Assembly (NCBI GenBank): GCA_963701085.1
Contig: OY969561.1
Coordinates: forward strand, 448,001 to 512,000
Length of the DNA: 64,000 nt
Direction: 5' to 3'
From: an uncultured bacterium
GTDB taxonomy: Bacteria > Babelota > Babeliae > Babelales > Vermiphilaceae
Shown here: piece after piece, positions 9,572 to 29,451 of the stretch
How the letters are laid out: the number at the start of each line of letters is the position of its first letter
Numbering within the stretch: the stretch's first letter is position 1
Position numbers and translations under genes: made by a program
Notes under the pieces: generated by a model
The model's input: only the letters and a program-made list of their open reading frames with translations
The model's database searches: none
Told to the model about the DNA's origin: nothing

Positions 9572-10618
9572 TTAAGAAATGGTGCAATCAAACAAACGCC
9601 GCACAACATCGTTCTCTTCTTCTCTTTCATTTTCGATTTCTTTGCCAGACCTCGCGCCATAGTTCTCCAACAACAGGACAACTTTATCATATTCAGGATC
9701 TTCTTGCGCTTTATCTAACATTTTATCCAGCAACCTAATGGGTATTATGTTACCGCAATCATCAGTATAACTACCCAACTCATAATTAAGATTATAATGA
9801 TTAGGATTATCCAACAATGCTTCTAACGCTTTAATACTTTTTTTAACACATGCTCGCTCTAAAAGTTTTTCATTAAGTAAAATATTAGCATCATTAAAAT
9901 GAACAATTATTTCAGTAAAATTGGAATCATCATAAATAGCATCAATTAATACTTTCATACATTTTCCGTGATCACAATCAACTGCTATTTTAAGAGCTTT
10001 TTCTACATTTTTTCTATCCGTCTCTCTAGACTCACTCACTATATCGCTGCTTCCTACAAGACAAGCCATAAGCAGCTCTGTAGGCTTACATTGATCGTGA
10101 ACTGAATTTGTAATAGTATATGATTCCAACAATTGCCATAATTGTTCATCACCAGTATGGTCAGTAACACAACACATATCTAATACTTCATGTTGATCTT
10201 GAGAGCTATCAATAGAATAATAAAGATGATGACTTTTAGTGCAGGGCAAACTATTCTTTAAACAACCAAGAATAGTACTCTTCTTTAAAATATTTTCCAC
10301 TCCTGCATAATTCCCAACATAAGCAGCATTCAAAAGAATACGAATCATGCGTGAATGATCAACATGACAAAAATCATTGCTAAAAATATCCGGTGACTTT
10401 ATCGATCCTTTGATATACCAATTTCTGTTTGTTTTTTGAAAGTTATTTTTATTATCTGAATGTTTAAAAACTATGAACTGCGTTTCAGGTATTAATTCAG
10501 TAAAGTAACTAAACGTTACTCCTGATTTTAGAGACGGAAACCAATTCATACCAAAAGATTGCTGACTAAAGAATAAAATACTTACTACAATGCGTGCCGT
10601 TAAAAATGATATTTTCAT
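9572..10618 (-). CDS. Secreted F-box-like/ankyrin-like protein with C-terminal CaaX (CTIS)
   Basis: Signal peptide ending SFG-M; F-box-like FTELIPETQFIVF...TNRNW; degenerate ankyrin repeats (LLMACLVG, LKIAVDCD, LLENYGA); ends DCTIS-stop. Confidence 0.6.
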   Translation of the reverse strand: MKISFLTARIVVSILFFSQQSFGMNWFPSLKSGVTFSYFTELIPETQFIVFKHSDNKNNFQKTNRNWYIKGSIKSPDIFSNDFCHVDHSRMIRILLNAAYVGNYAGVENILKKSTILGCLKNSLPCTKSHHLYYSIDSSQDQHEVLDMCCVTDHTGDEQLWQLLESYTITNSVHDQCKPTELLMACLVGSSDIVSESRETDRKNVEKALKIAVDCDHGKCMKVLIDAIYDDSNFTEIIVHFNDANILLNEKLLERACVKKSIKALEALLDNPNHYNLNYELGSYTDDCGNIIPIRLLDKMLDKAQEDPEYDKVVLLLENYGARSGKEIENEREEENDVVRRLFDCTIS

Positions 10619-10798
10619 ATTATTCCATGTAATAATTATTGCAATGCACATTATGGCTTTTTATAATACCATTTTTCATAAATAATTCAATAAGACAAAT
10701 AAGCTCATTGTCTTTCATGAATACACTCAAAAAAATAGCACATAAAAACAGCGTGAAACAAGAAGATTTAGTTAACTGTCATGCAACAAGTCAAAAAG

Positions 10799-11974
10799 TT
10801 ATATTTTTAAACCAGCAGGCATTTTGACTGTTATTTCTAAAGCTTTAAAACCAAACAGTTCAATTTGGAGCTCTTTTTTTTCAATTTTTTTCAGAGCTGT
10901 CCAAGTAGCATTTACTGCAATCAGAACGCCATAACTCTCTGCATAAAGACAAGGAGACGATATTCCACAATGTGCTACTTCAAAATCTCTAAGCGCGCGT
11001 GATGTATCAGCGGATATTTCTTGAGCAAGTTTAAATTTTGTATATGCAGGATGCAGTTTTATATTTTCTGATTCAATAGTAGTACAAGCCGTTATTCCAT
11101 TAAGAATAGAAGATTCTATAGTAGCGTGTCCTTTGGCCGCATGGGTCATTTCATGATGCATCATATGTTTTATACAGTCCTGGCTTTGGTGAGCAAGACT
11201 TGGATTAAAACCAATAAAACAAGGTTTGTTTTTTTGATAGTCCCATAATTTTTGTGTTGGATTTTTATCAAGTTTATCCATAATGTCAAAATCTGTTAAT
11301 GATTTATCTACCAAGTTAACAATTGATTTGGGAGCCCTCAATTCAGCACTAGCTATTTCCCAATGTTTTTGATCAAGAAACCCAACATTAAAGGCTGTTG
11401 GATTACATTCATTTTCTTGTATTGCATCTGTTAATGCGTTTGCCAAATTTACTGGCAAATCAGGATTCCACGCTGTGGTATTCCATTGCTCCCTCAGTGT
11501 GGCAGTATCAAATTTATTTCTCGTTTCTAGCTCCAACATAAAGAGACGCCATAGTTTTGAATGAGGATCAATACCATACGCTTGTCGCAACTCATTTTGT
11601 GTATTAACTTCATGCGCAACAAGGAGTGCATTAATTTTATTAAATTGATCATGAATGTAGCATTTTGCTCTACCGATCGGTAAGGAACAAAGAATTTCGA
11701 CTATTTTATTGTGCAATAAATTTCTACTGCTTTGTTGTTGAAGATCGGCTGTTTTCAAAATTGCCAATCTTTCATAAATGGGCAACTTCTGTGCATCGCC
11801 ATTGAGAATGTCAATATTTAAAGATGGCATTAATTCATCATAAAATTGATCCAAATCGTTTAACATGGCGATGATTATATCATTTTTTGATTTTATACGT
11901 TTCATGCCAAACGCTAAAAACTGCCATGATAACAAAAATATAATACTTATACCAAGTACGGATTTATGCACCAA
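10799..11974 (-). CDS. Secreted HExxH zinc metallopeptidase-like protein
   Basis: Signal peptide ending AFG-M; HHEMTH and downstream EISAD. Paralog of 13488..14672. Confidence 0.6.
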   Translation of the reverse strand: MVHKSVLGISIIFLLSWQFLAFGMKRIKSKNDIIIAMLNDLDQFYDELMPSLNIDILNGDAQKLPIYERLAILKTADLQQQSSRNLLHNKIVEILCSLPIGRAKCYIHDQFNKINALLVAHEVNTQNELRQAYGIDPHSKLWRLFMLELETRNKFDTATLREQWNTTAWNPDLPVNLANALTDAIQENECNPTAFNVGFLDQKHWEIASAELRAPKSIVNLVDKSLTDFDIMDKLDKNPTQKLWDYQKNKPCFIGFNPSLAHQSQDCIKHMMHHEMTHAAKGHATIESSILNGITACTTIESENIKLHPAYTKFKLAQEISADTSRALRDFEVAHCGISSPCLYAESYGVLIAVNATWTALKKIEKKELQIELFGFKALEITVKMPAGLKI

Positions 11975-12090
11975 AATCCTAGCAAGTAATAGTTTGAACT
12001 GAAACTAACAAAAGATTTTTTTCATTACAAGTAATTTATTTTTGTTTTTTTTCAATTTTTTTAAGCACATCAATCATCAGCGTTTTACTA

Positions 12091-13194
12091 TCATTGCAAG
12101 TTACAGGCCTCTGTGGATACTGAAAATGGGTGGCTGAAATCATTATAATCTTCATCTTCATCATACCCCATCTCTTGCAAAGTCTTACCACCAAGTTCTT
12201 TGTATAATGCAATATATTCTGCAATGTTAGGAATATCTGTTTGTTTGCATATTTCATCCAAAGTTGTTGTATTGATACCTCCATATGCACGACCCAAATG
12301 AACATTCTTCAAGCAACCATAAACGTTATTTTGTACCAATGCCTTAAATGCTTGTTTTTTTTGCTTCTTCATCGCCATAAATAATAATTCCAGATGAATC
12401 TCTTGATTAGGTTCTTTTTTATTTTTTAGAAACGATAATACTTTGATACAGTGTGGATTATCGTTGTACATTGCTATATAGAAACAATCAAGTATAAGCG
12501 CATATGTTGTACATAAACGATGCATTTCAACATTATCAACTTTTTCGCTCACAGAGTACTTTAATCGATCATTACTGTATTCAACTACCTTGCCATCAAC
12601 AACTACATCAAGCTCTTGTTTGACTTTATCACTATCACCGTCAAAACAGGCCATAAACAAAGGAAAAAAGACAACCCCATTTTTATGTGCATTCGATGCC
12701 AAATCCAACTCTTCAAATTTCTTAGGAGTTCCCTTTTTCCAATTATTGTTACCCAAATGCAATTTTTGAATAACAAACATATCACTAAGGCGAAAGCTCG
12801 TTTCTTCACTAATATCATAATCAAAATTACGTTGATTAGTACGATTAAGAATATTGCTCATCACCTCAATATTCTCATTCCATGCAGCATGCATCATAAC
12901 ATAAGACCAATCATCTTGACTTGGATGGAATGATTCATCATTGATAAGTTGATACATGTTAGGAGCTTGTTTGGTTCCAATTTTATGCCATGATTTACAA
13001 CTATTTTTTAATTGATTTTTTATAGATGGGCACGCAACAACAAAAATGTGGCGTCGAATATCTTCTGAGAACTTTTGTATATTAAACTGTTCTGTATTGT
13101 GAATCGTTAACATACTAAAAGATATAGTGTTACTCAGCAGTACGAGTGATAGAGCACTTATTTTTAACGCAAATGGTTGCATACACATTCCCAA
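12091..13194 (-). CDS. Secreted F-box-like/ankyrin-like protein with C-terminal CaaX (CNLQ)
   Basis: Leader ending SFS-M; F-box-like FSEDIRRHIF...LKNSCKSW; ankyrin-like PLFMACFDGD; ends ACNLQ-stop. Exact start uncertain. Confidence 0.65.
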   Translation of the reverse strand: MGMCMQPFALKISALSLVLLSNTISFSMLTIHNTEQFNIQKFSEDIRRHIFVVACPSIKNQLKNSCKSWHKIGTKQAPNMYQLINDESFHPSQDDWSYVMMHAAWNENIEVMSNILNRTNQRNFDYDISEETSFRLSDMFVIQKLHLGNNNWKKGTPKKFEELDLASNAHKNGVVFFPLFMACFDGDSDKVKQELDVVVDGKVVEYSNDRLKYSVSEKVDNVEMHRLCTTYALILDCFYIAMYNDNPHCIKVLSFLKNKKEPNQEIHLELLFMAMKKQKKQAFKALVQNNVYGCLKNVHLGRAYGGINTTTLDEICKQTDIPNIAEYIALYKELGGKTLQEMGYDEDEDYNDFSHPFSVSTEACNLQ

Positions 13195-13487: not shown

Positions 13488-14672
13488 TTATAACAACAAA
13501 AACGCTTTAGAATTTTGTTGTTCTCTTTTCTCAATCTCTGCAAGCAGTTCGAAATTAGTGTTAATCATACGTAAAGCGCCATAGCTATCGGGATAAAGAC
13601 TATCAACTCCCATTATACACTGAGCTGCTTTTATATCTTTTAAGGCAGGCAATACATCGGCAGCATTTTCATGCGTTTTTACATATTGTGCATAAGCCGG
13701 ATGTAACATTATCTGGTCAATAGTAACGTTCGGGTTATTCCTGATTATACTTCCTACAAGAGACTTTCTTTTCCCATCATCTCCCTCTACAGCATGCCTT
13801 ACTTCGTGCTTTACTGTCTGCAACAAATACGCATCATCTTTATCAGCAAGTATTGGGTGATAACTGAAGCGAGCTGGAGCATCTTTTTTATATCCAAACA
13901 CTGTTTTTGCTGGATTTTTTTTAGATTCTTCAAGACTTATCGATCTATCCACCGAAATACATAGTGATTGAGGAGCACAAAAAGTAGCATCAGCTACATT
14001 TAAATATTTATCCTGAAGAATTTTTACATCAAATGCCGTCGACTCTAGTCCATTTTCTTGCATCTCATCTCTTAACAACTGAGCAAATTTTATGGGCACA
14101 TGAGAACACCATGTTGTATCATTCCTTGGCTGGCGCATTGATTCCAGATCAAACGCAGCTTTATCGTTTATTTGCTTCTCTTGCATGTACCATTGGTTTG
14201 AATAAGGATCAATATTATAAGCTTGTAACAATTGATTTTGTGCATCAATTTTATCCTGACGAAGTTGTGCGCATATTTTGTTATGCTCAGCTTCAATCCA
14301 ACGCTTAGCTTCATCGCTTGTCATCATGTGATTTTTAAGAATTATTGATCTTTTTGCCTGTACTTCATCTATATTTTTTAGTTTTGGCTGAATAATTTTA
14401 TTAAATAGAGCAAATTTACTCAGTACCGGAAGCTGATCAACGGTAACGTTTGGTATTGTTACTTTGTTAAGCATTTCTGTTAAATTTAAGGATGGCATTG
14501 AATATGCGAATGCTTCATCCAAATATTTCTGAGTATAATTTATAGTAGGCCTTACGTTTCTACGTATACTGAATGCCTCAACAGCTTCTCTTGTACGCTT
14601 CATACCAAACAACACAGTATTACTGAACAATACAAGCGATATAACACTTATTTTTACAATTAATTGATACAT
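13488..14672 (-). CDS. Secreted HExxH zinc metallopeptidase-like protein
   Basis: Leader ending LFG-M; KHEVRH and ENAAD. Shares QAYxIDP, TAFxV and LYxxSYG with 10799..11974. ATG 14672 follows AAAGGAG. Confidence 0.6.
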   Translation of the reverse strand: MYQLIVKISVISLVLFSNTVLFGMKRTREAVEAFSIRRNVRPTINYTQKYLDEAFAYSMPSLNLTEMLNKVTIPNVTVDQLPVLSKFALFNKIIQPKLKNIDEVQAKRSIILKNHMMTSDEAKRWIEAEHNKICAQLRQDKIDAQNQLLQAYNIDPYSNQWYMQEKQINDKAAFDLESMRQPRNDTTWCSHVPIKFAQLLRDEMQENGLESTAFDVKILQDKYLNVADATFCAPQSLCISVDRSISLEESKKNPAKTVFGYKKDAPARFSYHPILADKDDAYLLQTVKHEVRHAVEGDDGKRKSLVGSIIRNNPNVTIDQIMLHPAYAQYVKTHENAADVLPALKDIKAAQCIMGVDSLYPDSYGALRMINTNFELLAEIEKREQQNSKAFLLL

Positions 14673-14692
14673 AACATCTCCTTTGTAGTTAC

Positions 14693-16261
14693 TCAAGTCC
14701 TTGAGAAGGATAGATTTGCAAAACGACGCACACGAATTTCTTCATCATCTGTCAATCTAATATCTCGCCGAGGGAGTTTCTTCAAAATATCTCCAATGGA
14801 ATCCATCTTATGTAATTCTTCAGTCGTCATTCCACCATTATCTCTATAAACTCTCATATTATCTTTATCAAAATTTTTATCTTTAATCATTCGATCTAAG
14901 TTGGTGCGGGTCTGAACCTCAGGCTCATGTTGATATTTCCACTTAAGCATATTGCATTTACAAGGATCTATTTGAGATATAAGCTCAAAAGCTTCTTTGT
15001 TATTTGCAGCCAAAGATAATAACTCATAAGAAAGAACAATTACTTCATCCTGAGCAATACCCCCTTGCTGTCGTAATAAATTCAACTTTAGCAATAAACA
15101 TTCAAGAGCATTATTTTTTTTATGGGGAGAACTTATAGAAGCCATAATAGATATACAAACATCTATATGCTCGGAAATAGACATACAAACATCTCTATGT
15201 TCGGAACTATTTTCCAACTCTTTTGATACATCTTCATCATCACCAAACAGCGTTGCATTCATGAGAGGGCTTTTAAAATTGTATATACTAAATTCAGGTA
15301 TAACTCTTAGTTTTAGTCGCATCTTGGGATTTGATTTTAATCGCTTCTGGAAAAATTCATTATGAGCACTATCAAATCTTCTGTTTCCAAGTTCTTCTAT
15401 TTCTTTTTCATTACCAATAAATTGCACATCAGGGTTTGCGTAAAAATATTTCTTATAAGGACTTACGATAAGAAGGTCAATTATTCTATCTTCCTCTATA
15501 AAAACAGGTGACATATCAACCACAATTACTGGTACATAGTGGGAGCGTAAAAAATTCAACACAAATTGTGGATCTTGATTTTTATAAAGAATTTCTAGAT
15601 TACGTCTACCAACTTCTTCAATAGTCATTCCACCATTCTTTTTATAAATTTTAATATTTTCTTGATCAAAAAAGAAATCTTCAGTCATATTATCTAAAAG
15701 AGTAAAGCTTCGACCCAGACCCATTTCCAACACAAGGTCATGAGTAGTAAAAGGATCTACTTGTGATACCAACTCAAAACTGTTTCTATCTTTAGTTGAC
15801 CTAAAATACATCTGATATGATAAGAATGATCGGATATTAGGCGGAACAGTCGAGAATTGTAATGATTGCTTTAGCCCTAACAATGACCGAGAAAGATCAT
15901 TATAATCCTTTTTTGCTATAGCAACCATAAGATTCTCAAATAGGGGTCGTTGCTCAGAATCGAGACCTTCTCTTACCTTTACACAACCAAACAGATCTCT
16001 AAGATATTCTTCATCACTATCTTTTAATGCTGATGACAATTTAGGAACTATTGTCATTTTTGATTTTAACTTTTTATCTTCTTCTACTAACTTTAACACT
16101 TCATCAACAGTCATGGGATAGATGGGTTCTTGCTTAACTGACGCCTGCAACTGCTTTTTATCTTCTTGATTTTTATAACGTACAATCATCCCAAAAGAAA
16201 TAGAGTTGCCAACCAACAACAGCATAACGCTTATTTTTAAAAGAGATCGATACATATTCAT
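14693..16261 (-). CDS. Secreted protein with degenerate ankyrin-like repeats
   Basis: Starts MNMYRSLLKISV like its paralog; PLMNATLFGD; the FEL..Q.DP...LD.M...NGGMT module occurs twice. Confidence 0.6.
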   Translation of the reverse strand: MNMYRSLLKISVMLLLVGNSISFGMIVRYKNQEDKKQLQASVKQEPIYPMTVDEVLKLVEEDKKLKSKMTIVPKLSSALKDSDEEYLRDLFGCVKVREGLDSEQRPLFENLMVAIAKKDYNDLSRSLLGLKQSLQFSTVPPNIRSFLSYQMYFRSTKDRNSFELVSQVDPFTTHDLVLEMGLGRSFTLLDNMTEDFFFDQENIKIYKKNGGMTIEEVGRRNLEILYKNQDPQFVLNFLRSHYVPVIVVDMSPVFIEEDRIIDLLIVSPYKKYFYANPDVQFIGNEKEIEELGNRRFDSAHNEFFQKRLKSNPKMRLKLRVIPEFSIYNFKSPLMNATLFGDDEDVSKELENSSEHRDVCMSISEHIDVCISIMASISSPHKKNNALECLLLKLNLLRQQGGIAQDEVIVLSYELLSLAANNKEAFELISQIDPCKCNMLKWKYQHEPEVQTRTNLDRMIKDKNFDKDNMRVYRDNGGMTTEELHKMDSIGDILKKLPRRDIRLTDDEEIRVRRFANLSFSRT

Positions 16262-16307
16262 AGACGCATCCCTATCAAAAGGAAAACAGTTATTTTTATA
16301 TTTTAGC

Positions 16308-17504
16308 TTAATCAACACCATACTCAGTCACCTCGACAGTATTAAGTTGTTGATTACGTTCCATTTCTCTTTGTCTTAGACCGTTATACACTAGTCTGTC
16401 GAAATAATCGCTCGCCATTCTTTCTTCAGGTGTCATCGAATATCTTCGGTTAGGCAAATGTTGAATAATATTACCAACATATTCCATTCTTTTTAATGTT
16501 TTAGCTGTACATCCACCATTATCTATGAAAGTCTGAATATTTTCTTCTCCAAAATATTTTTTATCTCTGATCATCAAATCTAAGGTGGTATATTGTTTAT
16601 GATCGTCAGGATTATAAACCTTAATCATGTTGGCATTATACGGATCTTTTCGAGCTATAAGCTTAAAAACTTTTTTATTATCAGCAGATGCACCTAAAAA
16701 CTTATAAGATAGACCTACTCTCGTCTCTTCGTCGGATTCACTATTTTCCCCAAAAAATTGCTTACCTCTTTGCTTTATTTTTGCCAAAAGCAATTCAAGG
16801 GCATTATTTTTTTTATTAGGATAATTTATAGAAGCCAAAACCGCATAATGCATATCAACCCCATAATCATCATTAAGATCAACGGGTTCTGCACCATTAG
16901 GATTACTTCTTCTGAGTTCTTTTTGTATATCTTCATCGTTTCCAAAAAGAGATGCCATCACAAGAGGAAAATTTCGATTTTCAGAGTAAGTTATCTTATA
17001 TACACTTGGATTTTTATTAATACAATTAATGCGTTTTTTCTTAAACGCTTTTCGAAATCTTTCTTCACCAATCTTACGAATTTTTTCATTAGAATTTGAG
17101 AAAAACGATTCACAATAAGGAAAGTAAAACGATTCAAGGTAAGGATTAATCTCAAAAAAATCCAGATTAATTTCTTTTTTCGAATCTGTATAAACATTGT
17201 CATGAACCAACATCACTGGCACATAATTATCTTTATCACTTAAAAACTTCTGCACAAATTCTGACTTATGACGATTCCTATAAAGCTTTTCTAGATTATA
17301 CTGACCTTGTTCTTCTAAAGACAAAGTCTTAACTTTCTCTTTTTCTTTTTCATATATAGGTTTTAAGCAAGATGAAATAGATGCTTGTATAGCTTTTTTA
17401 CTTTGTTCATCTTTATATCTTACAATCATCCCAAGGGAAACTGCATTACTTATCATTGCAAGCACTATAACGCTTATTTTTAAAAAAGATCGATACATAT
17501 TCAT
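16308..17504 (-). CDS. Secreted protein with degenerate ankyrin-like repeats, paralog of 14693..16261
   Basis: MNMYRSFLKISV...GMIVRYK, PLVMASLFGN, KKNNALE, TTLDLM...NGG. Confidence 0.6.
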   Translation of the reverse strand: MNMYRSFLKISVIVLAMISNAVSLGMIVRYKDEQSKKAIQASISSCLKPIYEKEKEKVKTLSLEEQGQYNLEKLYRNRHKSEFVQKFLSDKDNYVPVMLVHDNVYTDSKKEINLDFFEINPYLESFYFPYCESFFSNSNEKIRKIGEERFRKAFKKKRINCINKNPSVYKITYSENRNFPLVMASLFGNDEDIQKELRRSNPNGAEPVDLNDDYGVDMHYAVLASINYPNKKNNALELLLAKIKQRGKQFFGENSESDEETRVGLSYKFLGASADNKKVFKLIARKDPYNANMIKVYNPDDHKQYTTLDLMIRDKKYFGEENIQTFIDNGGCTAKTLKRMEYVGNIIQHLPNRRYSMTPEERMASDYFDRLVYNGLRQREMERNQQLNTVEVTEYGVD

Positions 17505-20936: not shown

Positions 20937-21656
20937 ATGATTTATGCACGTCTTTTCATCTGTACTATTTTAATGACAAGCTCATTAAATTCTATGGAGA
21001 TTGTTAAAAAACATACCCAACACAGTCAGAGTTTTAAAAGATATCTCCTTACTCAAAAGATATGTAAAAAGGAGAGCTTTCCTAAAGAAATTGGTTATTA
21101 CATAATACACTACTACTTAGCTCTCAAAAATAATCATTTATTAGGCTTATTAAAAAAGGAAGATCTTTTTATGGTCGCATGGGATAATGTTCATATCCCA
21201 ATCAACTACTATCACCTACTCACCTACATACAAATCGAGTTAATAAAAGAACTTCTTTCCTATCGACCACCTTGCGTACAATACTGCCATAAATGTGACA
21301 AATACAAATTAGACAAGCGAGATTATCGTCTCTGCGAAAAAGATTATTTTCTAGAATCAAAAAAAGATTACCAACTTTTTTTAACACTACCAATAGAACT
21401 AAGAAAATGCTTGGCACAAGCACCAAAATCATTGATAAGTTGGGCAATTGAACTACAAGAAGATCCTAGCTACAACTACAAAAACATCATCATTCCCAAA
21501 GCAATTAATGCTTTCCAAGTGATACAGGTAAAAAGTAAATCCACCGTAATCAAACACGATCTACTACAAAAACTCGGTGCACCTATCAAAGCACACTATC
21601 CTGGCTATACACCACGATTAATTGTTCCAGAAGAAAAGCAACTCTCACTGAAATAA
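20937..21656 (+). CDS. Secreted hypothetical protein, paralog 1 of 3
   Basis: MIYARLFICTILMTSSLNS-MEI leader; FPKEI; FLTLPIELRKCL; IVPEE. Confidence 0.75.
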   Translation: MIYARLFICTILMTSSLNSMEIVKKHTQHSQSFKRYLLTQKICKKESFPKEIGYYIIHYYLALKNNHLLGLLKKEDLFMVAWDNVHIPINYYHLLTYIQIELIKELLSYRPPCVQYCHKCDKYKLDKRDYRLCEKDYFLESKKDYQLFLTLPIELRKCLAQAPKSLISWAIELQEDPSYNYKNIIIPKAINAFQVIQVKSKSTVIKHDLLQKLGAPIKAHYPGYTPRLIVPEEKQLSLK

Positions 21657-21758
21657 CTCTCCCCCGGGCTTGATAAACCGGGGGATTTTTTATGGCATTA
21701 AAAATAGTCTGATGATATCTTAAGTGGCAAACAACATTAAAAAAAAAGGTTTAAAAAA

Positions 21759-22409
21759 ATGCTTTATGCACGTCTTTTCATCTGTACTATTTTTATTACC
21801 AGCTCATTAAGCTCTATGGAAATTATTAAAAACAACAAAAACAAAAAAGTTCATACGGAAAAAAACTGTTGGGGCAATGATATCGTAACACAATTAATTC
21901 TCACCCAAAGAGTATGCGACAAAAACAAACTTCCTCAAGAGATTATCACTCAAATACACGCATACAACTTATTACTAAAGCACAAACATTTCGAAAATAA
22001 TTTTACTTGCATAAATCAATGGAATGATTTTCTTATTCCAATAAAATATCACTATCTTCTATCACCACAACAAATAAATATCCTAGAGACTTTATTCAAA
22101 ACCAAACCTTGCATATTTGATAGCTGGGACGGGTACGGGGTATCAGGGTATATGTATTTTTTACCATCAAAAAAAGATTATAAAAAGTTTTTAACACTAC
22201 CAATAGAACTGAGAAAATGCTTAGTCAAATTACCACAATCAAAAATAAAAAATAAACTCACTGATCACTATATCAATACTAACAAAGCTATAGGTATTAT
22301 AACCTGGCGAACCAGAGGACTCTCTATGTATGCCACACAACAAAGCATCGAGCAAAAATTGATTGTTCCAGAAGACAAAGAGGATAAAATCTACCACAAA
22401 AGACTCTAA
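21759..22409 (+). CDS. Secreted hypothetical protein, paralog 2 of 3
   Basis: Same leader; LPQEII; FLTLPIELRKCL; IVPED. Confidence 0.75.
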   Translation: MLYARLFICTIFITSSLSSMEIIKNNKNKKVHTEKNCWGNDIVTQLILTQRVCDKNKLPQEIITQIHAYNLLLKHKHFENNFTCINQWNDFLIPIKYHYLLSPQQINILETLFKTKPCIFDSWDGYGVSGYMYFLPSKKDYKKFLTLPIELRKCLVKLPQSKIKNKLTDHYINTNKAIGIITWRTRGLSMYATQQSIEQKLIVPEDKEDKIYHKRL

Positions 22410-22511
22410 TACGCCTTCTCTCGCTCCAATAAGTCGAGGGATTTTTTATGGCGTTAAAAACATTGATATGATATTTTATGGTGAATAACAATCAACAAAA
22501 AAGGATAAAAA

Positions 22512-23150
22512 ATGTTTTATGTATTTCTTTTAATAAGCACTATTTTGATGACAAATTCATTAAACTCTATGGAAATTATTAAAAAGAATAAAGCTCAAAA
22601 AAAACATACCCTTGATGATTCAATCAATAAAGAATTACTTTTTGTTCACGCAATAACCAATAAAGAAGTTCTACCGAGTGAAATTACTAAAAAAATTATA
22701 TTACCTTACTGCGCAGCATTAAAAAATAAAGAATTTGAAAACAATTCTAACACATTCAAAGAAACTTGGTTTAAAAACAGCCTTATCACCCGCGATTATT
22801 ATTTTTTGACATCGCAACAAAAAGAATTAATGTACAAAATAATTACAACAAAATTTGAAGGCTTAACTCGAATAGAGTATTGTTTAGATTCCACCAAAGA
22901 ATACAAATTATTTTTAAAATTACCAATCGAGCTCAGGAAAAACTTAACATTAGTACCCAACAGTATAAAATTCCGCCAAATCTTACTACCAGGATCTTCT
23001 CTCTATATTAATCCAGACAAAACAATACAAGTCAGAACAACAGGCCAAAAAATCATGGTCATGGTCACCGTAAATCATCATTATTGTGATAACAGCATTC
23101 CAAAACCAATTATTCCTGAAGAAAACGAGAAAAAGAATCATAAAAAATAA
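22512..23150 (+). CDS. Secreted hypothetical protein, paralog 3 of 3
   Basis: Same leader; LPSEIT; FLKLPIELRKNL; IIPEE. Confidence 0.75.
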   Translation: MFYVFLLISTILMTNSLNSMEIIKKNKAQKKHTLDDSINKELLFVHAITNKEVLPSEITKKIILPYCAALKNKEFENNSNTFKETWFKNSLITRDYYFLTSQQKELMYKIITTKFEGLTRIEYCLDSTKEYKLFLKLPIELRKNLTLVPNSIKFRQILLPGSSLYINPDKTIQVRTTGQKIMVMVTVNHHYCDNSIPKPIIPEENEKKNHKK

Positions 23151-23219: not shown

Positions 23220-24851
23220 ATGGATATGAAACATATATCATTGCGAATAACAATCGTTGCTGCATGCTGCAGCATTGCACTCATGTCACAAACAGCACAA
23301 AGTATGGAAAATTTTTTCCATGAACACAAAAATATCGGAGAAATCGCGGGAGCATTTTCACCAACACTCGGGCGATTGATGAATGGTGAGCAACCGGCAA
23401 TAGCTAATAATCCTCACAAAAATGAAACCGCTTTCACGCGACACACCTATACCATAAGTGAAGGTGAAAAAGTCTATCGCAAAAACCGCTTACCAATCAT
23501 AAAAGCTGCCCTAGAAAAAATGCTTAATCGTTCAATAAATGAACATCAAATTCCAAAAATCGCTCTCATTTGCAGTGGCGGTGGATACCGTGCAATGTTC
23601 TGCACCACCGGATCATTATGCGGTGCGCAAGAAATAGGTCTTTTGGATGCAACCACCTATATAACAGCGTTATCTGGATCAACATGGGCGGTTGCACCAT
23701 GGATTTCCACCGGATTACCGCTCAGAAAATTTAAAGATTATCTCCAGGAGTGCGCTGCAAAACCATTCCGTGATCTTACACATGAAGAAAAAATGTTGAT
23801 AGCAAACGCAATCGCCGTAAAAAAAACATACAAGCAACCTCGTACATTGGTCGACCCTTATGGCGATCTTTTAGCAAACAGGTTACTTGCATACTTTGGC
23901 GACATGAAACAGATGATCTATTTATCAGACCAATCTCAATCAATTGAATCCGGCACGTATCCTTACCCCATTTATACCGCAATAGATGGTCGCGAAAGCA
24001 TAGCACATGGACAAACATGGTATGAATTCACTCCTCATACAATCGGCGAACGGACCAATAACATACACATACCAACATGGGCATATGGAAGAAAATTCAA
24101 AAAAGGTGAATCTACCAACCATGCTCCAGAAAAAAATCTGGGCTATATGATGGGCACCTGGGGCTCCGCTTTTGCTGCAAATATTGATGATATAATCGAG
24201 GAAATAGACAAAGACAAAGACCATGAAAATCTTCTTGAAAAACTTGCTCAACCAATAGATGGAAAAAGAATTCTGCCTTTTGAGGCAAAAGTATCTAATT
24301 ACATGTACAGAATGCACTACCTTTCAGATGCAAAACTATCATCAAAGAAACATCTGAAATTTGTTGATTCCGGTCTTGAAATTAACTTACCTTACCCTCC
24401 TGTCAGCAGCACATGTCCAGAACGCACCCCCGATATTCTCATTTTTTTGGATGCATCAGCAGGACACATAGGCGATGAATTAAAAAAAGTAGCTGAATAT
24501 GCAAAAAGCAAGAACATCCCATTTCCTTCTATTAATAACGAGCTTCTTGGCAAGCAAACAATAAGCATTTTTAAAGATGAAGACAATACAGCAACGCCGA
24601 TTGTTATTTATATGCCACGCATCAGTGATAAACAATTATGGGAGGCAAACAGATCAAAACCAGAATTTGCACACTACAACCTTTCAGGTTTTGACCTAGA
24701 TCATGAGACCAATAACGGCTACTGTAAAACACAAAACTTTCAATACAAGCCAGAACACTCTGAACTTGTGATGAACCAGACCGAATTCAATATGTGCATT
24801 AATAAAGATATCATTTTAAAGGAAATCAATTGGTGCATAGATAGGAAATAA
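23220..24851 (+). CDS. Secreted cPLA2/phospholipase B-type lysophospholipase
   Basis: SGGGYRAM oxyanion motif, ALSGSTW serine, YPYPIY, WYEFTP, GTWGSAFA, FVDSG aspartate. Confidence 0.88.
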   Translation: MDMKHISLRITIVAACCSIALMSQTAQSMENFFHEHKNIGEIAGAFSPTLGRLMNGEQPAIANNPHKNETAFTRHTYTISEGEKVYRKNRLPIIKAALEKMLNRSINEHQIPKIALICSGGGYRAMFCTTGSLCGAQEIGLLDATTYITALSGSTWAVAPWISTGLPLRKFKDYLQECAAKPFRDLTHEEKMLIANAIAVKKTYKQPRTLVDPYGDLLANRLLAYFGDMKQMIYLSDQSQSIESGTYPYPIYTAIDGRESIAHGQTWYEFTPHTIGERTNNIHIPTWAYGRKFKKGESTNHAPEKNLGYMMGTWGSAFAANIDDIIEEIDKDKDHENLLEKLAQPIDGKRILPFEAKVSNYMYRMHYLSDAKLSSKKHLKFVDSGLEINLPYPPVSSTCPERTPDILIFLDASAGHIGDELKKVAEYAKSKNIPFPSINNELLGKQTISIFKDEDNTATPIVIYMPRISDKQLWEANRSKPEFAHYNLSGFDLDHETNNGYCKTQNFQYKPEHSELVMNQTEFNMCINKDIILKEINWCIDRK

Positions 24852-25053
24852 TTTCCCAAATGAAATTATATAACAATAAAGTACAAAAACCGTAGACTTT
24901 CATTACAATTTTTATATAGCTTATTAAAAAAATATAAAAAAAAGGAGACTCAAAGACATAGACTAATAATCCATATCACAAAAATACCCATCTGAAGAAT
25001 GCGCCTAAAAAAAAGATAAAAAACAATACAACATATTGTACAAAGGAATTGTA

Positions 25054-27051
25054 ATGATAAACGGAACGTATCGTTCAGTACTTGTCAGCCTTATCGCCAT
25101 CGGCGGTTTGATTACTACGTCTCAAGTCGCGGCAAAAACAAAAATAAAAAAACATAATATTCAATTACAGCTTGCTGATTCCCTTGGATTTCCTATTGTA
25201 GGAAGTGAATTCTGGGTTACTCTTGAGGTCATCCGAGAGTCGCTCGAGGAGAATAAATCATTGGTAACATTACAACTACCTCTCATTAACTTTCAAACTC
25301 AAGCAGCACCTTCCCCCGATAATCCGATTGGCCCTGGATTAGTTCCTGGAGGATATCTTTACACCTCTGATGGTTTTTTATCAAGAAAAAATCGGCCGTT
25401 CGTTTTAGTTCCGCCTTCAATTGTAGCAGCATCTGATAATGGATTGTCTCCTGTGTTCTCATTCACGCAAGATCCAGAAACATTACCCAATCCTCCAGCT
25501 GGTTACATTGTACAAGTAACTAATGCCGGCGAATTGCAAGTACAAGCAGCGGGAACCTTTGGAAACGTAATTGCACCAGGACCACAAATTTTAATGCCTT
25601 GTTCTATCTCCTACTTATCAAAAGGTAGTACCAAAAAGCTCTCCAACAACACCAAAATCAGCACTGGTGCCACAAATATTACCCAATTTACCGGTAGAGC
25701 AGCGAATGATGGCATTAGAGATTCTCACGTCAACGATGCATTCAATGGCATTGTTGCATTCGACTGGACTGATAATTCTATGATTGCAGATCAATCCAAC
25801 AATACTGTGAATACAATGGTTGCCATTGGCACAGTGAAACATGGCAAACTCAACATTGGCACACCGGTACAACTGACTAATTTGCCTGCTGGAGTAATGG
25901 CATGGGATACTGCAGTTGCCATTAATAGAGCTAATCCAAATAATATTGTAGTTTCATGGGAGCAACTTGACCATACAGTGAGCCCAACCATCGGCCTCCC
26001 TTATCGTGCCGTTTCATTTGATGGCGGTAAAACATGGCCGGTAAATGGCCTAATGAATGTAGGGCCAACAGGAAATCCTAGTTCAGCTGGTGACTGCCTC
26101 GGAGTAGCATCGGATAAATTTGGTAATATCTGGTATTCTGCAACAAATCTTTTTGACAATGCAGGCAACTTAATCAACCAACCATACTTTGCAGTAAGTA
26201 CCGATGGTGGTGTTACCTTTACCCTTGCATATACAGTTCCAGCATTTGATTTTAATCTAGGAGTAACCGATTACCCACAGTATTGTTTTGGTGGTGATGG
26301 ATTTGGCAACTATGGCTTATGGTTCCAAACTACTATTTTCCTCAATGATGGCGATGCATATCCAAATGTTGGATTCATACAAATACCAGGCCCACTCAGT
26401 CCTTCCGATTTCCCATTAACCAGCAATTTCACCGATCTGTTTGGACTTAATAATAGCATCACTGAAGGGGATCTTGCAGCATCATCAGATGGACGAGTTT
26501 GGTTTGCCGGATATCCAAATGCATTTGGATCATCTACCTATATTCATCCACAATCAATTTCATTCAAATCACCTGGCGCAATCGATGAAAATTGGAGTGG
26601 CTCTTGGAATTACTTAATTGGCAATGATAGCAGCGATATATATGAGATTACTACTGCCATATCATATCCAGCAGTTGGCTTTTTTGCTAATACTACATTA
26701 AGCATTGTTTATGATGAACAACGGCAAGCTCTCTATGCCATTGCTGTTGAGCCAAACCCCGATTATTCTCAAAATTACGATATACCCCTTATTATCTCAC
26801 GTGATAATGGCATGACATGGTCTAATCCAATTAGAATCAATACAAGTCATTCTGGCAATCGCGGTTATTATTCAATGGCACTTGATACAGTTACTGGTGA
26901 TTTAGTATTTGGTTTTTATGATGGACGTAATGATTCAACATTCCAAACATTAGAATATTTTGGTGCCGTATTATCAGCCAAAAAATTGGATAAATTGGTA
27001 AATAAAATACCACTATCAAATCCAACCTTTGTGGTGCCTTCGGCAGCATAA
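25054..27051 (+). CDS. Secreted Asp-box (BNR) beta-propeller, sialidase-like protein, copy 1
   Basis: SFDGGKTW, STDGGVTF, SRDNGMTW; signal peptide; ATG follows AAAGGA. Confidence 0.8.
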   Translation: MINGTYRSVLVSLIAIGGLITTSQVAAKTKIKKHNIQLQLADSLGFPIVGSEFWVTLEVIRESLEENKSLVTLQLPLINFQTQAAPSPDNPIGPGLVPGGYLYTSDGFLSRKNRPFVLVPPSIVAASDNGLSPVFSFTQDPETLPNPPAGYIVQVTNAGELQVQAAGTFGNVIAPGPQILMPCSISYLSKGSTKKLSNNTKISTGATNITQFTGRAANDGIRDSHVNDAFNGIVAFDWTDNSMIADQSNNTVNTMVAIGTVKHGKLNIGTPVQLTNLPAGVMAWDTAVAINRANPNNIVVSWEQLDHTVSPTIGLPYRAVSFDGGKTWPVNGLMNVGPTGNPSSAGDCLGVASDKFGNIWYSATNLFDNAGNLINQPYFAVSTDGGVTFTLAYTVPAFDFNLGVTDYPQYCFGGDGFGNYGLWFQTTIFLNDGDAYPNVGFIQIPGPLSPSDFPLTSNFTDLFGLNNSITEGDLAASSDGRVWFAGYPNAFGSSTYIHPQSISFKSPGAIDENWSGSWNYLIGNDSSDIYEITTAISYPAVGFFANTTLSIVYDEQRQALYAIAVEPNPDYSQNYDIPLIISRDNGMTWSNPIRINTSHSGNRGYYSMALDTVTGDLVFGFYDGRNDSTFQTLEYFGAVLSAKKLDKLVNKIPLSNPTFVVPSAA

Positions 27052-27116: not shown

Positions 27117-27414
27117 CAACACGTAAACATATACTCTTTAAGACTTATATCCTATGTGCATTAATAAAGATATCATTTTAAAGGAAATCAATTGGTGCAT
27201 AGATAGGAAATAATTTCCCAAATGAAATTATATAACAATAAAGTACAAAAACCGTAGACTTTCATTACAATTTTTATATAGCTTATTAAAAAAATATAAA
27301 AAAAAGGAGACTCAAAGACATAGACTAATAATCCATATCACAAAAATACCCATCTGAAGAATGCGCCTAAAAAAAGATAAAAAACAATACAACATATTGT
27401 ACAAAGGAATTGTA

Positions 27415-29451
27415 ATGATAAACGGAACGTATCGTTCAGTACTTGTCAGCCTTATCGCCATCGGCGGTTTGATTACTACGTCTCAAGTCGCGGCAAAAAC
27501 AAAAATAAAAAAACATAATATTCAATTACAGCTTGCTGATTCCCTTGGATTTCCTATTGTAGGAAGTGAATTCTGGGTTACCCTTGAGGTCATCCGAGAG
27601 TCGCTCGAAGAGAATAAATCATTGGTAACATTACAACTGCCACTCATTAACTTTCAAACTCAAGCAGCACCTTCTCCCGATAATCCGATTGGCCCTGGAT
27701 TAGTTCCTGGAGGATATCTTTACACCTCTGATGGTTTTTTATCAAGAAAAAATCGACCGTTCGTTTTAGTTCCGCCTTCAATTGTAGCAGCATCTGATAA
27801 TGGATTGTCTCCTGTGTTCTCATTCACGCAAGATCCAGAAACATTACCCAATCCTCCAGCTGGTTACATTGTACAAGTAACTAATGCCGGCGAATTGCAA
27901 GTACAAGCAGCGGGAACCTTTGGAAACGTAATTGCACCAGGACCACAAATTTTAATGCCTTGTTCTATCTCCTACTTATCAAAAGGTAGTACCAAAAAGC
28001 TCTCCAACAACACCAAAATCAGCTCTGGTGTCACAAATATTACCCAATTTACTGGTGGAGCGGCGAATGATGGTATTAGAGACACACACGTCAATGATGC
28101 ATTTGATGGCGTTGTTGCATTCAGCTGGACTTCTAATTCTGGGAACGTAAATCTTAATAATGGAACTCTGAATACATTTGTCGCAATAGGAACAGTCAAA
28201 AACGGTGAACTGAAAATGCATTCGCAAATTAATTTAACCAACTATCCAGACAACGTGTTAACGCCTACCAATCTAGGTATTCAGGCATGGGATACTTCAG
28301 TTGCAATTAATAGAGCAAATCCAGATAATATTGTAGTCTCATGGGGCAAAATCGATCGATCAAATGAACCAAGCTTAACCGTCCTCCCTTATCGTGCCGT
28401 TTCATTTGATGGTGGTAAAACATGGCCTATAAACGGACTAATGGACGTACCACCAACAGGAAATCCTGCTCGATTTGGCGACTGTCTTGGAGTATCCTCA
28501 GATAAATTTGGTAATATCTGGTATTCTGCAACAAATAGATTTGATGGTTCAGGTAATCAGATCAACCAACCATATTTTGCCGTGAGCACTGATGGTGGGA
28601 TTACCTTTACCCTTGCATATACAGTTCCAGCATTTGATTTTAATCTAGGATTCACCGATTACCCACAATATTGTTTTGGTGGTGATGGATTTGGCAACTA
28701 TGGTTTATGGTTCCAAACTACTATTTACCTCAATGATGGCGATGCGTATCCAAACGTTGGGTTCATACAAATACCAGGCCCACTCACACCTTCCGATTTT
28801 CCATTAACCAGCAATTTCACCGATTTGTTCGGACTGAATAATAGCATCATCGAGGGAGATCTTGCAGCATCATCAGACGGACGAGTGTGGTTTCAAGGAT
28901 ATCCGAATGCATTTGGATCATTTAGCTACATTCAGCCACAATCAATTTCATTCAAATCACCTGGCGCCATCGATGAAAACTGGAGTGGCTCTTGGAATTA
29001 CTTAATTGGCAATGATCTAAGCGATACATACTTTGGATCGATCCCTACTCCAATTGCTATATCATATCCACTTGTTGGCTTTTTTACTAATACTACATTA
29101 GGCATTGTTTATGATGAACAACGGCAAGCTCTCTATGCCATTGCTGTTGAGCCAAACCCGGATTATTCTCAAAATTACGATATACCCCTTATTATCTCAC
29201 GTGATAATGGCATGACGTGGTCTAATCCAATTCGAGTCAATACGAGTCATTCCGGCAATCGTGGTTATCAGTCAATGGCACTTGATACAGTAACTGGTGA
29301 TTTAGTATTTGGTTTTTATGATGGGCGTAATGATCCGACACTTCAGACATTAGAATATTTTGGTGCCGTATTATCAGCCAAAAAATTGGATAAATTGGTA
29401 AATAAAATACCACTATCAAATCCAACCTTTGTGGTGCCTTCGGCAGCATAA
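27415..29451 (+). CDS. Secreted Asp-box (BNR) beta-propeller, sialidase-like protein, copy 2
   Basis: N-terminal ~200 aa match copy 1; same three Asp boxes; diverged middle. Confidence 0.8.
   Translation: MINGTYRSVLVSLIAIGGLITTSQVAAKTKIKKHNIQLQLADSLGFPIVGSEFWVTLEVIRESLEENKSLVTLQLPLINFQTQAAPSPDNPIGPGLVPGGYLYTSDGFLSRKNRPFVLVPPSIVAASDNGLSPVFSFTQDPETLPNPPAGYIVQVTNAGELQVQAAGTFGNVIAPGPQILMPCSISYLSKGSTKKLSNNTKISSGVTNITQFTGGAANDGIRDTHVNDAFDGVVAFSWTSNSGNVNLNNGTLNTFVAIGTVKNGELKMHSQINLTNYPDNVLTPTNLGIQAWDTSVAINRANPDNIVVSWGKIDRSNEPSLTVLPYRAVSFDGGKTWPINGLMDVPPTGNPARFGDCLGVSSDKFGNIWYSATNRFDGSGNQINQPYFAVSTDGGITFTLAYTVPAFDFNLGFTDYPQYCFGGDGFGNYGLWFQTTIYLNDGDAYPNVGFIQIPGPLTPSDFPLTSNFTDLFGLNNSIIEGDLAASSDGRVWFQGYPNAFGSFSYIQPQSISFKSPGAIDENWSGSWNYLIGNDLSDTYFGSIPTPIAISYPLVGFFTNTTLGIVYDEQRQALYAIAVEPNPDYSQNYDIPLIISRDNGMTWSNPIRVNTSHSGNRGYQSMALDTVTGDLVFGFYDGRNDPTLQTLEYFGAVLSAKKLDKLVNKIPLSNPTFVVPSAA

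Follow-up and report, generated by a model that had tools for sequence, protein, structure and literature searches.

Host prenylation of bacterial effectors has so far been documented for a handful of type III and type IV secretion system (T3SS and T4SS) substrates of well-studied pathogens, Salmonella SifA being one such host-prenylated effector. The closest described system is Legionella pneumophila AnkB, which carries an F-box, ankyrin repeats and the CaaX box 169-CVLC and is reported to need the host farnesyltransferase (FTase), RCE-1 and ICMT (PMC2916131); Legionella PelC and PelE (PMC13081727) and Salmonella GtgE (PMC13423502) are likewise reported as host-prenylated effectors. Poxviruses and Orientia tsutsugamushi are reported to encode ankyrin proteins with a C-terminal F-box-like (PRANC) domain (PMC4148323). 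Here we describe two genes, ORF A and ORF B, on the minus strand of a 64,000-nucleotide stretch (the window, G000:C1:448001-512000) from an obligate intracellular member of the Babeliales (Dependentiae/TM6). The source genome (label G000) is a single contig of 1,198,634 bases with 37% G+C.

Within this phylum, a signal peptide is reported on 79 of the 126 ankyrin-repeat proteins of Babela massiliensis, in which a type II secretion system (T2SS) was the sole secretion system found and one F-box protein is mentioned (PMC4378268). Chromulinavorax destructans is reported to have 98 ankyrin proteins, 78% of them with a signal peptide, while 44% of all its coding sequences have one (PMC6561590). Going by these two accounts, a Sec leader is the norm for Dependentiae ankyrin effectors (PMC4378268, PMC6561590), and an earlier sequence-only reading of this window, which had singled out the Sec leaders of ORF A and ORF B as an oddity, has to be corrected on that point.

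The comparisons described below establish the domain order of the two products, selection on the register of their CaaX box, and the lack of a bacterial prenyltransferase in G000. We consider it probable, though some way from certain, that ORF A and ORF B encode predicted Skp1/Cullin-1/F-box (SCF) adaptors that are exported by a Sec/T2SS route and prenylated by the host.

The CaaX box in ORF A, ORF B and other leader-bearing proteins

The features of the two genes are as follows.

9572 to 10651, minus strand: ORF A, 359 aa as the longest open reading frame (ORF), with a Sec-type leader, a degenerate F-box, ankyrin repeats, an acidic tail and CTIS
10550 to 10618, minus strand: leader of ORF A as read from the sequence, spanning residues 12-34 (MKISFLTARIVVSILFFSQQSFG), with a predicted signal peptidase (SPase) cut between G34 and M35 (...SQQSFG, then M)
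10400 to 10504, minus strand: F-box-like segment of ORF A (residues about 50-84), placed by alignment with relatives in which Pfam recognizes an F-box
9626 to 10354, minus strand: ORF A ankyrin-repeat region, residues about 100-342, from VIA-align, Foldseek and the family profile against the PDB
9575 to 9586, minus strand: ORF A CaaX box CTIS, with the stop codon at 9572-9574
12091 to 13194, minus strand: ORF B, 367 aa from TTG, with a Sec-type leader, an F-box, ankyrin repeats, an acidic tail and CNLQ
13114 to 13182, minus strand: ORF B leader, residues 5-27 (MQPFALKISALSLVLLSNTISFS), with a predicted cut between S27 and M28 (...NTISFS, then M), kept in homologs
12970 to 13080, minus strand: ORF B F-box segment, residues about 39-75 (FSEDIRRHIF...LKNSCKSWHKIG), from conservation and alignment with Pfam-positive relatives
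12190 to 12918, minus strand: ORF B ankyrin-like helical-repeat region, residues about 93-335, from Ank_2 matches in homologs and an AlphaFold2 (AF2) model
12094 to 12105, minus strand: ORF B CaaX box CNLQ, with the stop codon at 12091-12093 and the Cys kept in 11 of 11 sequences

The positions, the minus strand and the CTIS-stop and CNLQ-stop endings after acidic tails are all as the sequence-only reading had them (ORF A, ...EEENDVVRRLFDCTIS-stop; ORF B, ...DEDEDYNDFSHPFSVSTEACNLQ-stop). The likely start of ORF A is the internal Met12 (MKISF...) at 10618, from comparison with homolog leaders, and that of ORF B is Met5 (MQPF...) at 13182, where the database copy P0003 begins, which gives a product of 363 aa. 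Both endings fit the CaaX rule, with a Cys four residues from the end, an aliphatic a2 and an X accepted by FTase or geranylgeranyltransferase I (GGTase-I), as that rule is given in PMC11152559. According to the same source, CIIS, CTIL, CIIL and CVLS, tetrapeptides that are found in these families, are prenylated in a yeast reporter, CIIS by FTase only, and CTIL and CIIL are still modified without FTase (PMC11152559).

Ten homologs share 46-63% identity with ORF B, and the CaaX Cys is invariant in ORF B and all of these (11 of 11), while the linkers that precede it vary in length and sequence. The termini in this group are CNLQ, CSLQ, CNIQ, CVIS, CIIF, CSLQ, CVVQ, CSVQ, CSIQ, CSVQ and CSVQ. 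Judged by this alignment, the ORF B CaaX box is firmly conserved. When the 11-sequence ORF B profile was run over 1.84 billion representative proteins, it gave 51 matches at E ≤ 1e-3, of which 23 have a Cys at position -4, compared with 0-2 at any other position among the last 15. In the 23 boxes the a2 residue is I in 11, L in 7, V in 4 and T in 1 (I, L or V in 22/23), and X is Q in 13, S in 7 and F in 3. Comparison across the family shows the CaaX box to be under strong positional selection. Conservation of the terminal Cys, which the sequence-only reading had named as a check on its proposal, is therefore found both among the ORF B homologs and, with strict positional specificity, family-wide.

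ORF A and ORF B are only weakly alike (BLASTP E 0.003, 23% identity over 79 residues that are exactly the F-box-like stretch), in agreement with their description as very divergent paralogs. ORF A is a distant member of the ORF B family, since its closest homolog, P0002 (40% identity), matches the ORF B profile at E 3e-4. Among the five closest homologs of ORF A, two have a CaaX box, one has a transmembrane tail and two have neither; within its subfamily P0046 (CTIS) and P0051 (CIIS) carry the box. By these comparisons the ORF A CaaX is one form taken by a C-terminal tag that is evolutionarily labile. The sequence-only reading had argued that retention of CaaX in both paralogs goes beyond chance, and this stands for ORF B and for the family as a whole, but not for ORF A, whose box is absent from its positional orthologs.

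The remaining family members end in other ways. A hydrophobic C-terminal helix takes the place of CaaX in 3 of the 51 (P0002, P0020 and P0052) and one, P0057, ends in a polybasic run; several have long coiled-coil-like tails, others stop shortly past a conserved 'GGKT..EL' helix, and there are a few fragments. CaaX is one of several interchangeable C-terminal address tags, the others being a tail-anchor helix, a polybasic tail, or none. The net charge of the 12 residues ahead of the CaaX Cys ranges from -3 to +4 across the family; a polybasic stretch before the Cys occurs in a minority (P0043, P0044, P0055), and some members have a second Cys nearby. Outside G000, the family is present in 5 of 10 genomes of the genus, and it is absent from all 250 other Dependentiae genomes scanned. 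A pattern search of genome contigs for loci related to the 11-sequence alignment gave 94 pattern matches, none of which was confirmed.

CaaX boxes also end leader-bearing proteins outside this family. In G000, both members of a tandem pair at 216484-217683 (CAIL) and 217665-218558 (CTIL) have Ank_2 and a leader, and their F-box is clearer (HPDIRQHIFKNLPEKDLSVRLVCKNW); the CAIL paralog scores 20.4-21.1 against the Pfam F-box. Genus-level homologs of this pair end in CVIQ, CTIQ, CTIQ and CPIQ, and two lack the Cys, so that 6 of the 8 assessable genes have a Cys at -4 (G000 pair included, one open-ended fragment excluded). A leader-bearing WD40 protein at G000 790044-790844 (+), ending in CIIL, has 23 homologs (family P0059-P0082); here 12 of 24 have a Cys at -4, compared with 0-1 at any other position, and the members without it terminate at a conserved 'IQKYGK'. 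In this alignment the CaaX tail behaves as a detachable module. Two adjacent small leader-bearing ORFan paralogs, at G000:C1:321879-322415 (-) and 322631-323542 (-), end in CIIS and KKCILF; the CIIS member, the one of the two scanned, has no Pfam family.

A genome-wide search with the pattern C-[not DEKRPG]-[ILVM]-[SQFLMAC] found it at the true C-terminus of 8 G000 ORFs, compared with 1, 2, 0, 1, 2, 2 and 3 ORFs in seven shifted registers. A leader can be made out by eye in seven of these 8 ORFs (CTIS, CNLQ, CAIL, CTIL, CIIS, CILF, CIIL), and the eighth, an 83-aa ORF, is probably spurious. The sequence-only reading had proposed comparing CaaX ends between leader-bearing and other proteins. In the strict set, in which a hydrophobic leader ends in a small residue followed by Met ([small]-Met), CaaX occurs in 5 of 167 ORFs, compared with 3 of the 1006 other ORFs (Fisher p 0.002); a leader is in fact present in two of these three. 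A loose leader detector, which flagged 460 of 1173 ORFs but neither ORF A nor ORF B, gave no clear Cys excess; a generic detector flagged 500 of 1173, with a CaaX contrast of p 0.07 in G000, and the contrast was p 0.5 in G183, a whole genome from another genus of the same family. Cys at -4 was found in 8 of 199 ORFs of the first [small]-Met set, compared with 1-7 at other positions, which is weak alone. Since the contrast fades with the looser detectors, it hinges on how a leader is defined. The register-shift control is independent of that definition, and in G183 the pattern is found at the true end of 7 ORFs, compared with 0-1 in shifted registers. One of these 7, a transposase-like helix-turn-helix protein, is probably a chance case; the five of the other six that were scanned have no Pfam family, and the sixth spans a locus boundary.

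F-box and ankyrin segments

The Pfam F-box cut-off (20.5) is passed by two relatives, P0058 (26.4 bits) and the paralog P0030 (21.8), which lies at G000 290753-292174, matches the ORF B profile at E 4e-16 and scores 25.6 in the genome scan. Five more are near the threshold: P0022 (20.3), P0038 (18.1), P0009 (F-box-like, E 0.0012), P0041 and P0023. All of these F-box matches lie directly after the leader, and in a 49-sequence alignment their columns correspond to residues about 50-84 of ORF A and about 39-75 of ORF B. In the ORF B segment, I50, F51, V52, N60, Q61, L62, K63, W69 and H70 are nearly invariant among homologs. The ORF A segment is degenerate, with IP in place of LP and NRNW (TNRNW) in place of CKxW; its AF2 model has three short helices there (residues 55-64, 68-74 and 76-82) with a predicted local distance difference test score (pLDDT) of about 85. 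Membership in the F-box families (PF00646/PF12937) rests on family transitivity, because neither ORF A nor ORF B gives a match by its own score. The F-box segment that the sequence-only reading placed after each leader is therefore upheld by alignment with Pfam-positive relatives, but not by a match of either protein in its own right. Across G000 the Pfam F-box is over its cut-off at 3 places, compared with none in 14 control genomes.

The ankyrin assignment is stronger in the family than in either protein alone. Ank_2 (PF12796) is below threshold in ORF A (E 0.012) and ORF B (E 0.0031), is found at E ≤ 1 in 10 of the 11 sequences of the ORF B alignment (best 4.4e-6), and is over its cut-off in P0023, P0058, P0006, P0020 and the G257 ortholog of ORF A. 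A profile of the 49 sequences matched 33 distinct PDB sequences at E ≤ 1e-3, with Ankyrin-1/2 the best at 7.7e-16, and by name all 33 are ankyrin-repeat or designed repeat proteins. The 11-sequence profile found only a designed binder at E 0.3. Just two PDB rows reach the N-terminal part of the 49-sequence profile, that of F-box only protein 4 (E 0.12) and that of Legionella AnkB (E 0.14), and both fall short of significance.

The AF2 model of ORF A, built from the 49-sequence alignment, has a mean pLDDT of 83.8. Its listed Foldseek matches are all ankyrin-repeat proteins (best E 5e-3), and the top 50 VIA-align matches are all ankyrin-repeat chains, the best being Legionella AnkC at Z 9.8, within the Z range of 7-10 that is flagged as possibly a common arrangement for repeats and is not decisive. 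The AF2 model of ORF B, built from 11 sequences, has a mean pLDDT of 65.4 and is confident over residues 80-200 and 222-295; its weak Foldseek rows are mostly ankyrin, armadillo and TRPC proteins. The degenerate ankyrin repeats of the sequence-only reading are borne out by the family profile and by the ORF A model, which matches ankyrin chains only. Taken together, the predicted F-box and ankyrin identities hold at the family level.

Predicted export, proposed mechanism and alternatives

The leaders were read from the sequence with our own heuristic. Those of ORF A and ORF B have a K/R-containing n-region, a hydrophobic core of 8-9 residues, and small residues at -3 and -1 before a Met. A leader of the [small]-Met type is found on 167 of 1173 G000 ORFs, compared with 28 in a His control with the same 2.5% background; examples in the window are 10550-10618, 13114-13182 and 11903-11974, plus those of ORFs 14693-16321 and 16308-17504. 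The residue that follows the Met is Glu in 79 of the 167, Asp in 18, Asn in 14 and Gln in 7. Cleavage ahead of this Met would give neo-N-termini of the Met-Glu type, resembling ordinary eukaryotic protein starts. Met-Glu-type N-termini are NatB substrates.

G000 has an SPase I (PF10502), two secretin loci and two T2SSE ATPases. No match was found in the genome to the VirB4 family (PF03135, the sole T4SS marker searched), to the T3SS marker FHIPEP, or to ICMT. A Skp1 search of the genome was also negative, which is weak, as a control search also matched nowhere. The premise that bacteria do not prenylate CaaX boxes agrees with the lack of any PF00432 protein prenyltransferase in G000. These absences are not absolute, because the genome is 92.6% complete. 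One Rce1-like/CPBP domain is present (G000:C1:90167-90466 (-), inside a 1146-aa open frame), and it is probably unrelated to host CaaX processing, because the family is common in bacteria and occurs in 11 of 14 control genomes.

In the mechanism that we propose, the precursor would cross the inner membrane by Sec, SPase I would cut just ahead of the conserved Met, and the mature protein would leave by a secretin/T2SS-type apparatus or in vesicles and reach the host cytosol. Host FTase would then lipidate the CaaX Cys (X = S or Q). Farnesyl-only proteins reside on endomembranes, and because the tails of ORF A and ORF B are acidic and carry no second signal, polybasic or palmitoyl, the farnesylated products would be expected to settle there. 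The F-box would recruit host Skp1/Cullin-1 at endomembranes, and the ankyrin repeats would pick host substrates for ubiquitination. As far as sequence analysis reaches, this interpretation is supported.

Several observations weigh against it. At the C-terminus, 28 of the 51 family representatives lack a Cys at -4, and the members are mutually related, so the CaaX counts are not independent events. P0002 has no CaaX and carries a tail-anchor-like hydrophobic helix there instead, and the positional orthologs of ORF A beside carD in the sister genomes G253 and G257 also lack CaaX, ending in ...FSWQ and ...WYLFY; the box of ORF A is therefore either dispensable or recent. The acidic tails of ORF A and ORF B, for which the sequence-only reading had rightly noted the lack of a polybasic second signal, offer no second membrane signal of any kind. 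At the N-terminus, neither protein has a Pfam F-box match at E ≤ 1, and the ORF A motif lacks both LP and CKxW. Neither model has a Foldseek match at E ≤ 1e-3, the whole-model fold searches, with the Z range noted above, are filled by the ankyrin domain and do not probe the F-box part, and residues 1-75 of the ORF B model are below pLDDT 50. Export past the envelope, crossing of any vacuolar membrane, Skp1 binding and lipidation are all inferred from sequence.

The F-box observations bear most directly on an alternative that we regard as unlikely, though it is the best placed of those considered: that the two proteins are ankyrin binders anchored in membranes by host prenylation, but that their F-box-like stretch has decayed, so that they no longer bind Skp1 and instead sequester or relocate host targets on endomembranes. 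The missing Pfam matches, the loss of the LP and CKxW signature from ORF A and the low confidence of the ORF B model over this region would all be expected in that case, as would the presence of CaaX on scaffolds that have no F-box (WD40, small ORFans). However, the F-box segment is the most conserved part of the ORF B family, its residues fit the F-box consensus in the columns of true Pfam matches, and the corresponding segment of ORF A is confidently modelled as three short helices.

An improbable alternative is that the C-terminal Cys motif serves the bacterium itself, as a disulfide partner, a metal ligand or a tag for envelope retention or sorting, and that the proteins stay periplasmic or on the surface. 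A Sec leader alone delivers a protein to the periplasm only, delivery to the host is an extrapolation, and the one Rce1-like/CPBP gene could be taken to fit, but its family also occurs in most of the control genomes. On the other hand, F-box, ankyrin and WD40 domains are cytosolic eukaryotic interaction modules that would be partnerless in the periplasm; the boxes obey eukaryotic CaaX rules (the a2 preference described above, X of Q, S or F, plus L in other families, and a Cys exactly at -4); and some members swap CaaX for a tail-anchor helix, another eukaryotic membrane tag. We know of no bacterial C-terminal sorting system of CaaX-like form, although no search aimed at one was made. That the two CaaX ends are non-functional leftovers or chance endings of fast-evolving ORFans without a defined role is very improbable, since the absence of the box from the positional orthologs of ORF A and the restriction of the family to one genus are outweighed by the invariant Cys of the ORF B homologs behind its varying linker and by the register-shift controls.

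The reading of ORF A and ORF B as host-prenylated SCF adaptors can be extended to the lineage, more tentatively and with less than even confidence. The lineage would then export effectors by Sec/T2SS with eukaryotic labels at both ends, swappable C-terminal tags being carried by F-box/ankyrin, WD40 and ORFan scaffolds, and a Met-Glu/Asp/Asn/Gln neo-terminus mimicking a host protein start. If this extended reading is true, these bacteria plant ubiquitin-ligase adaptors on chosen host organelles, and theirs would be the first host-lipidated effector repertoire outside T3SS/T4SS pathogens, arisen independently of Legionella AnkB. The occurrence of CaaX on these leader-bearing proteins gives a concrete, testable handle on the host-cell destination of Dependentiae effectors, and a leader plus CaaX offers a simple sequence rule to pick effector candidates in Dependentiae genomes.

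The surrounding island and comparison with known systems

ORF A and ORF B sit in a minus-strand gene run in which every gene opens with a short hydrophobic leader. The run is flanked by a housekeeping block (PpiD-like, SPOR-like, MiaA-like and CarD) and by dnaK; a Pfam scan confirmed the CarD and SurA/PpiD-type domains, and the names MiaA, SPOR and DnaK were read off the translations. Because the same interval holds differing sets of leader-bearing genes in three sister genomes, it behaves as a variable effector island.

Two leader-bearing paralogs with an HExxH motif, at 10799-11974 (-) and 13488-14696 (-), share 29% identity (E 6e-54) and are interleaved with the two F-box/ankyrin/CaaX genes, as though a two-gene unit had been duplicated. 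Neither has a Pfam family, and the best Protein Atlas score for the HExxH neighbour (0.84) is a weak lead to Peptidase_M13. A functional pairing of F-box and HExxH genes was considered and dropped, because the corresponding island of G253 and G257 contains no HExxH ORF.

The other leader-bearing genes nearby include several sets of paralogs. Those at 14693-16321 (-, 542 aa) and 16308-17504 (-, 398 aa) overlap by 14 bases, have near-identical leaders (MNMYRS.LKISV...) and relatives in the G253 and G257 island, and have no Pfam family. Three tandem paralogs of 212-239 aa at 20937-23150 (+) have leaders ending in SLNSME or SLSSME, and the one member scanned has no Pfam family. At 23220-24851 (+), a leader precedes a eukaryote-type lysophospholipase/cytosolic PLA2 catalytic domain (PLA2_B, E 4e-28), and a PLA2_B-like gene also adjoins the island in G253. 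The near-identical leader-bearing genes at 25036-27051 (+) and 27361-29451 (+), of 671 and 696 aa, look like a recent tandem duplication; BNR/Asp-box repeats were found in the 25036-27051 product, the first copy, which was the one scanned.

Among described proteins, the ankyrin proteins of Babela and Chromulinavorax are the nearest in lineage, being from the same phylum and sharing the design of Sec leader plus ankyrin repeats, with proposed release into the host cytoplasm. They differ in that C-terminal CaaX or tail-anchor tags are not described in the relevant passages of the two reports (PMC4378268, PMC6561590); the words prenyl and farnesyl are absent from both texts, and CaaX is absent from PMC4378268, the one searched for it. 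We found no literature joining Dependentiae, Babela, Babeliales, Vermiphilus or Chromulinavorax with CaaX, prenylation or farnesylation, in a search that left subscription journals and supplements outside its scope, and a search combining CaaX, signal peptide, type II secretion and effector returned unrelated papers only. New here is CaaX in an almost unstudied phylum of protist parasites, on Sec-route proteins, and swappable across at least three families.

The PRANC proteins are alike in being pathogen-encoded ankyrin/F-box adaptors for host SCF1. The PRANC F-box-like motif is C-terminal and is not accompanied by CaaX, whereas the Babeliales F-box is N-terminal, as in cellular F-box proteins. 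PelC/PelE, GtgE and SifA share with ORF A and ORF B a C-terminal CaaX that borrows host prenylation for membrane targeting. They are T3SS/T4SS substrates without a Sec leader and are single proteins, whereas within one lineage of the Babeliales CaaX recurs in three or more families of Sec-leader proteins.

Compared with AnkB, the module order is the same, with an N-terminal F-box, then ankyrin repeats, then a C-terminal CaaX, and so is the presumed logic of a bacterial SCF adaptor that is lipid-anchored by the host; both come from parasites of amoebae or other protists. The description of ORF A and ORF B as AnkB-like is thus apt for architecture, but it does not extend to sequence homology. 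There is no detectable kinship between the family profile and the AnkB chain 5k35_A (E 0.14), and the structural match (VIA Z 7.2, 10% identity) covers the generic ankyrin part only. ORF A and ORF B have about twice the length of AnkB and carry a Sec leader; AnkB is injected by Dot/Icm, and G000 lacks the one T4SS marker searched, the VirB4 type; and X is S, Q, F or L in the Babeliales proteins, which belong to another phylum, compared with C in AnkB. On these comparisons, the likeness to AnkB is convergence, not homology, and it offers a clean case in which the combination of F-box, ankyrin repeats and CaaX would have been assembled separately in two bacterial lineages.

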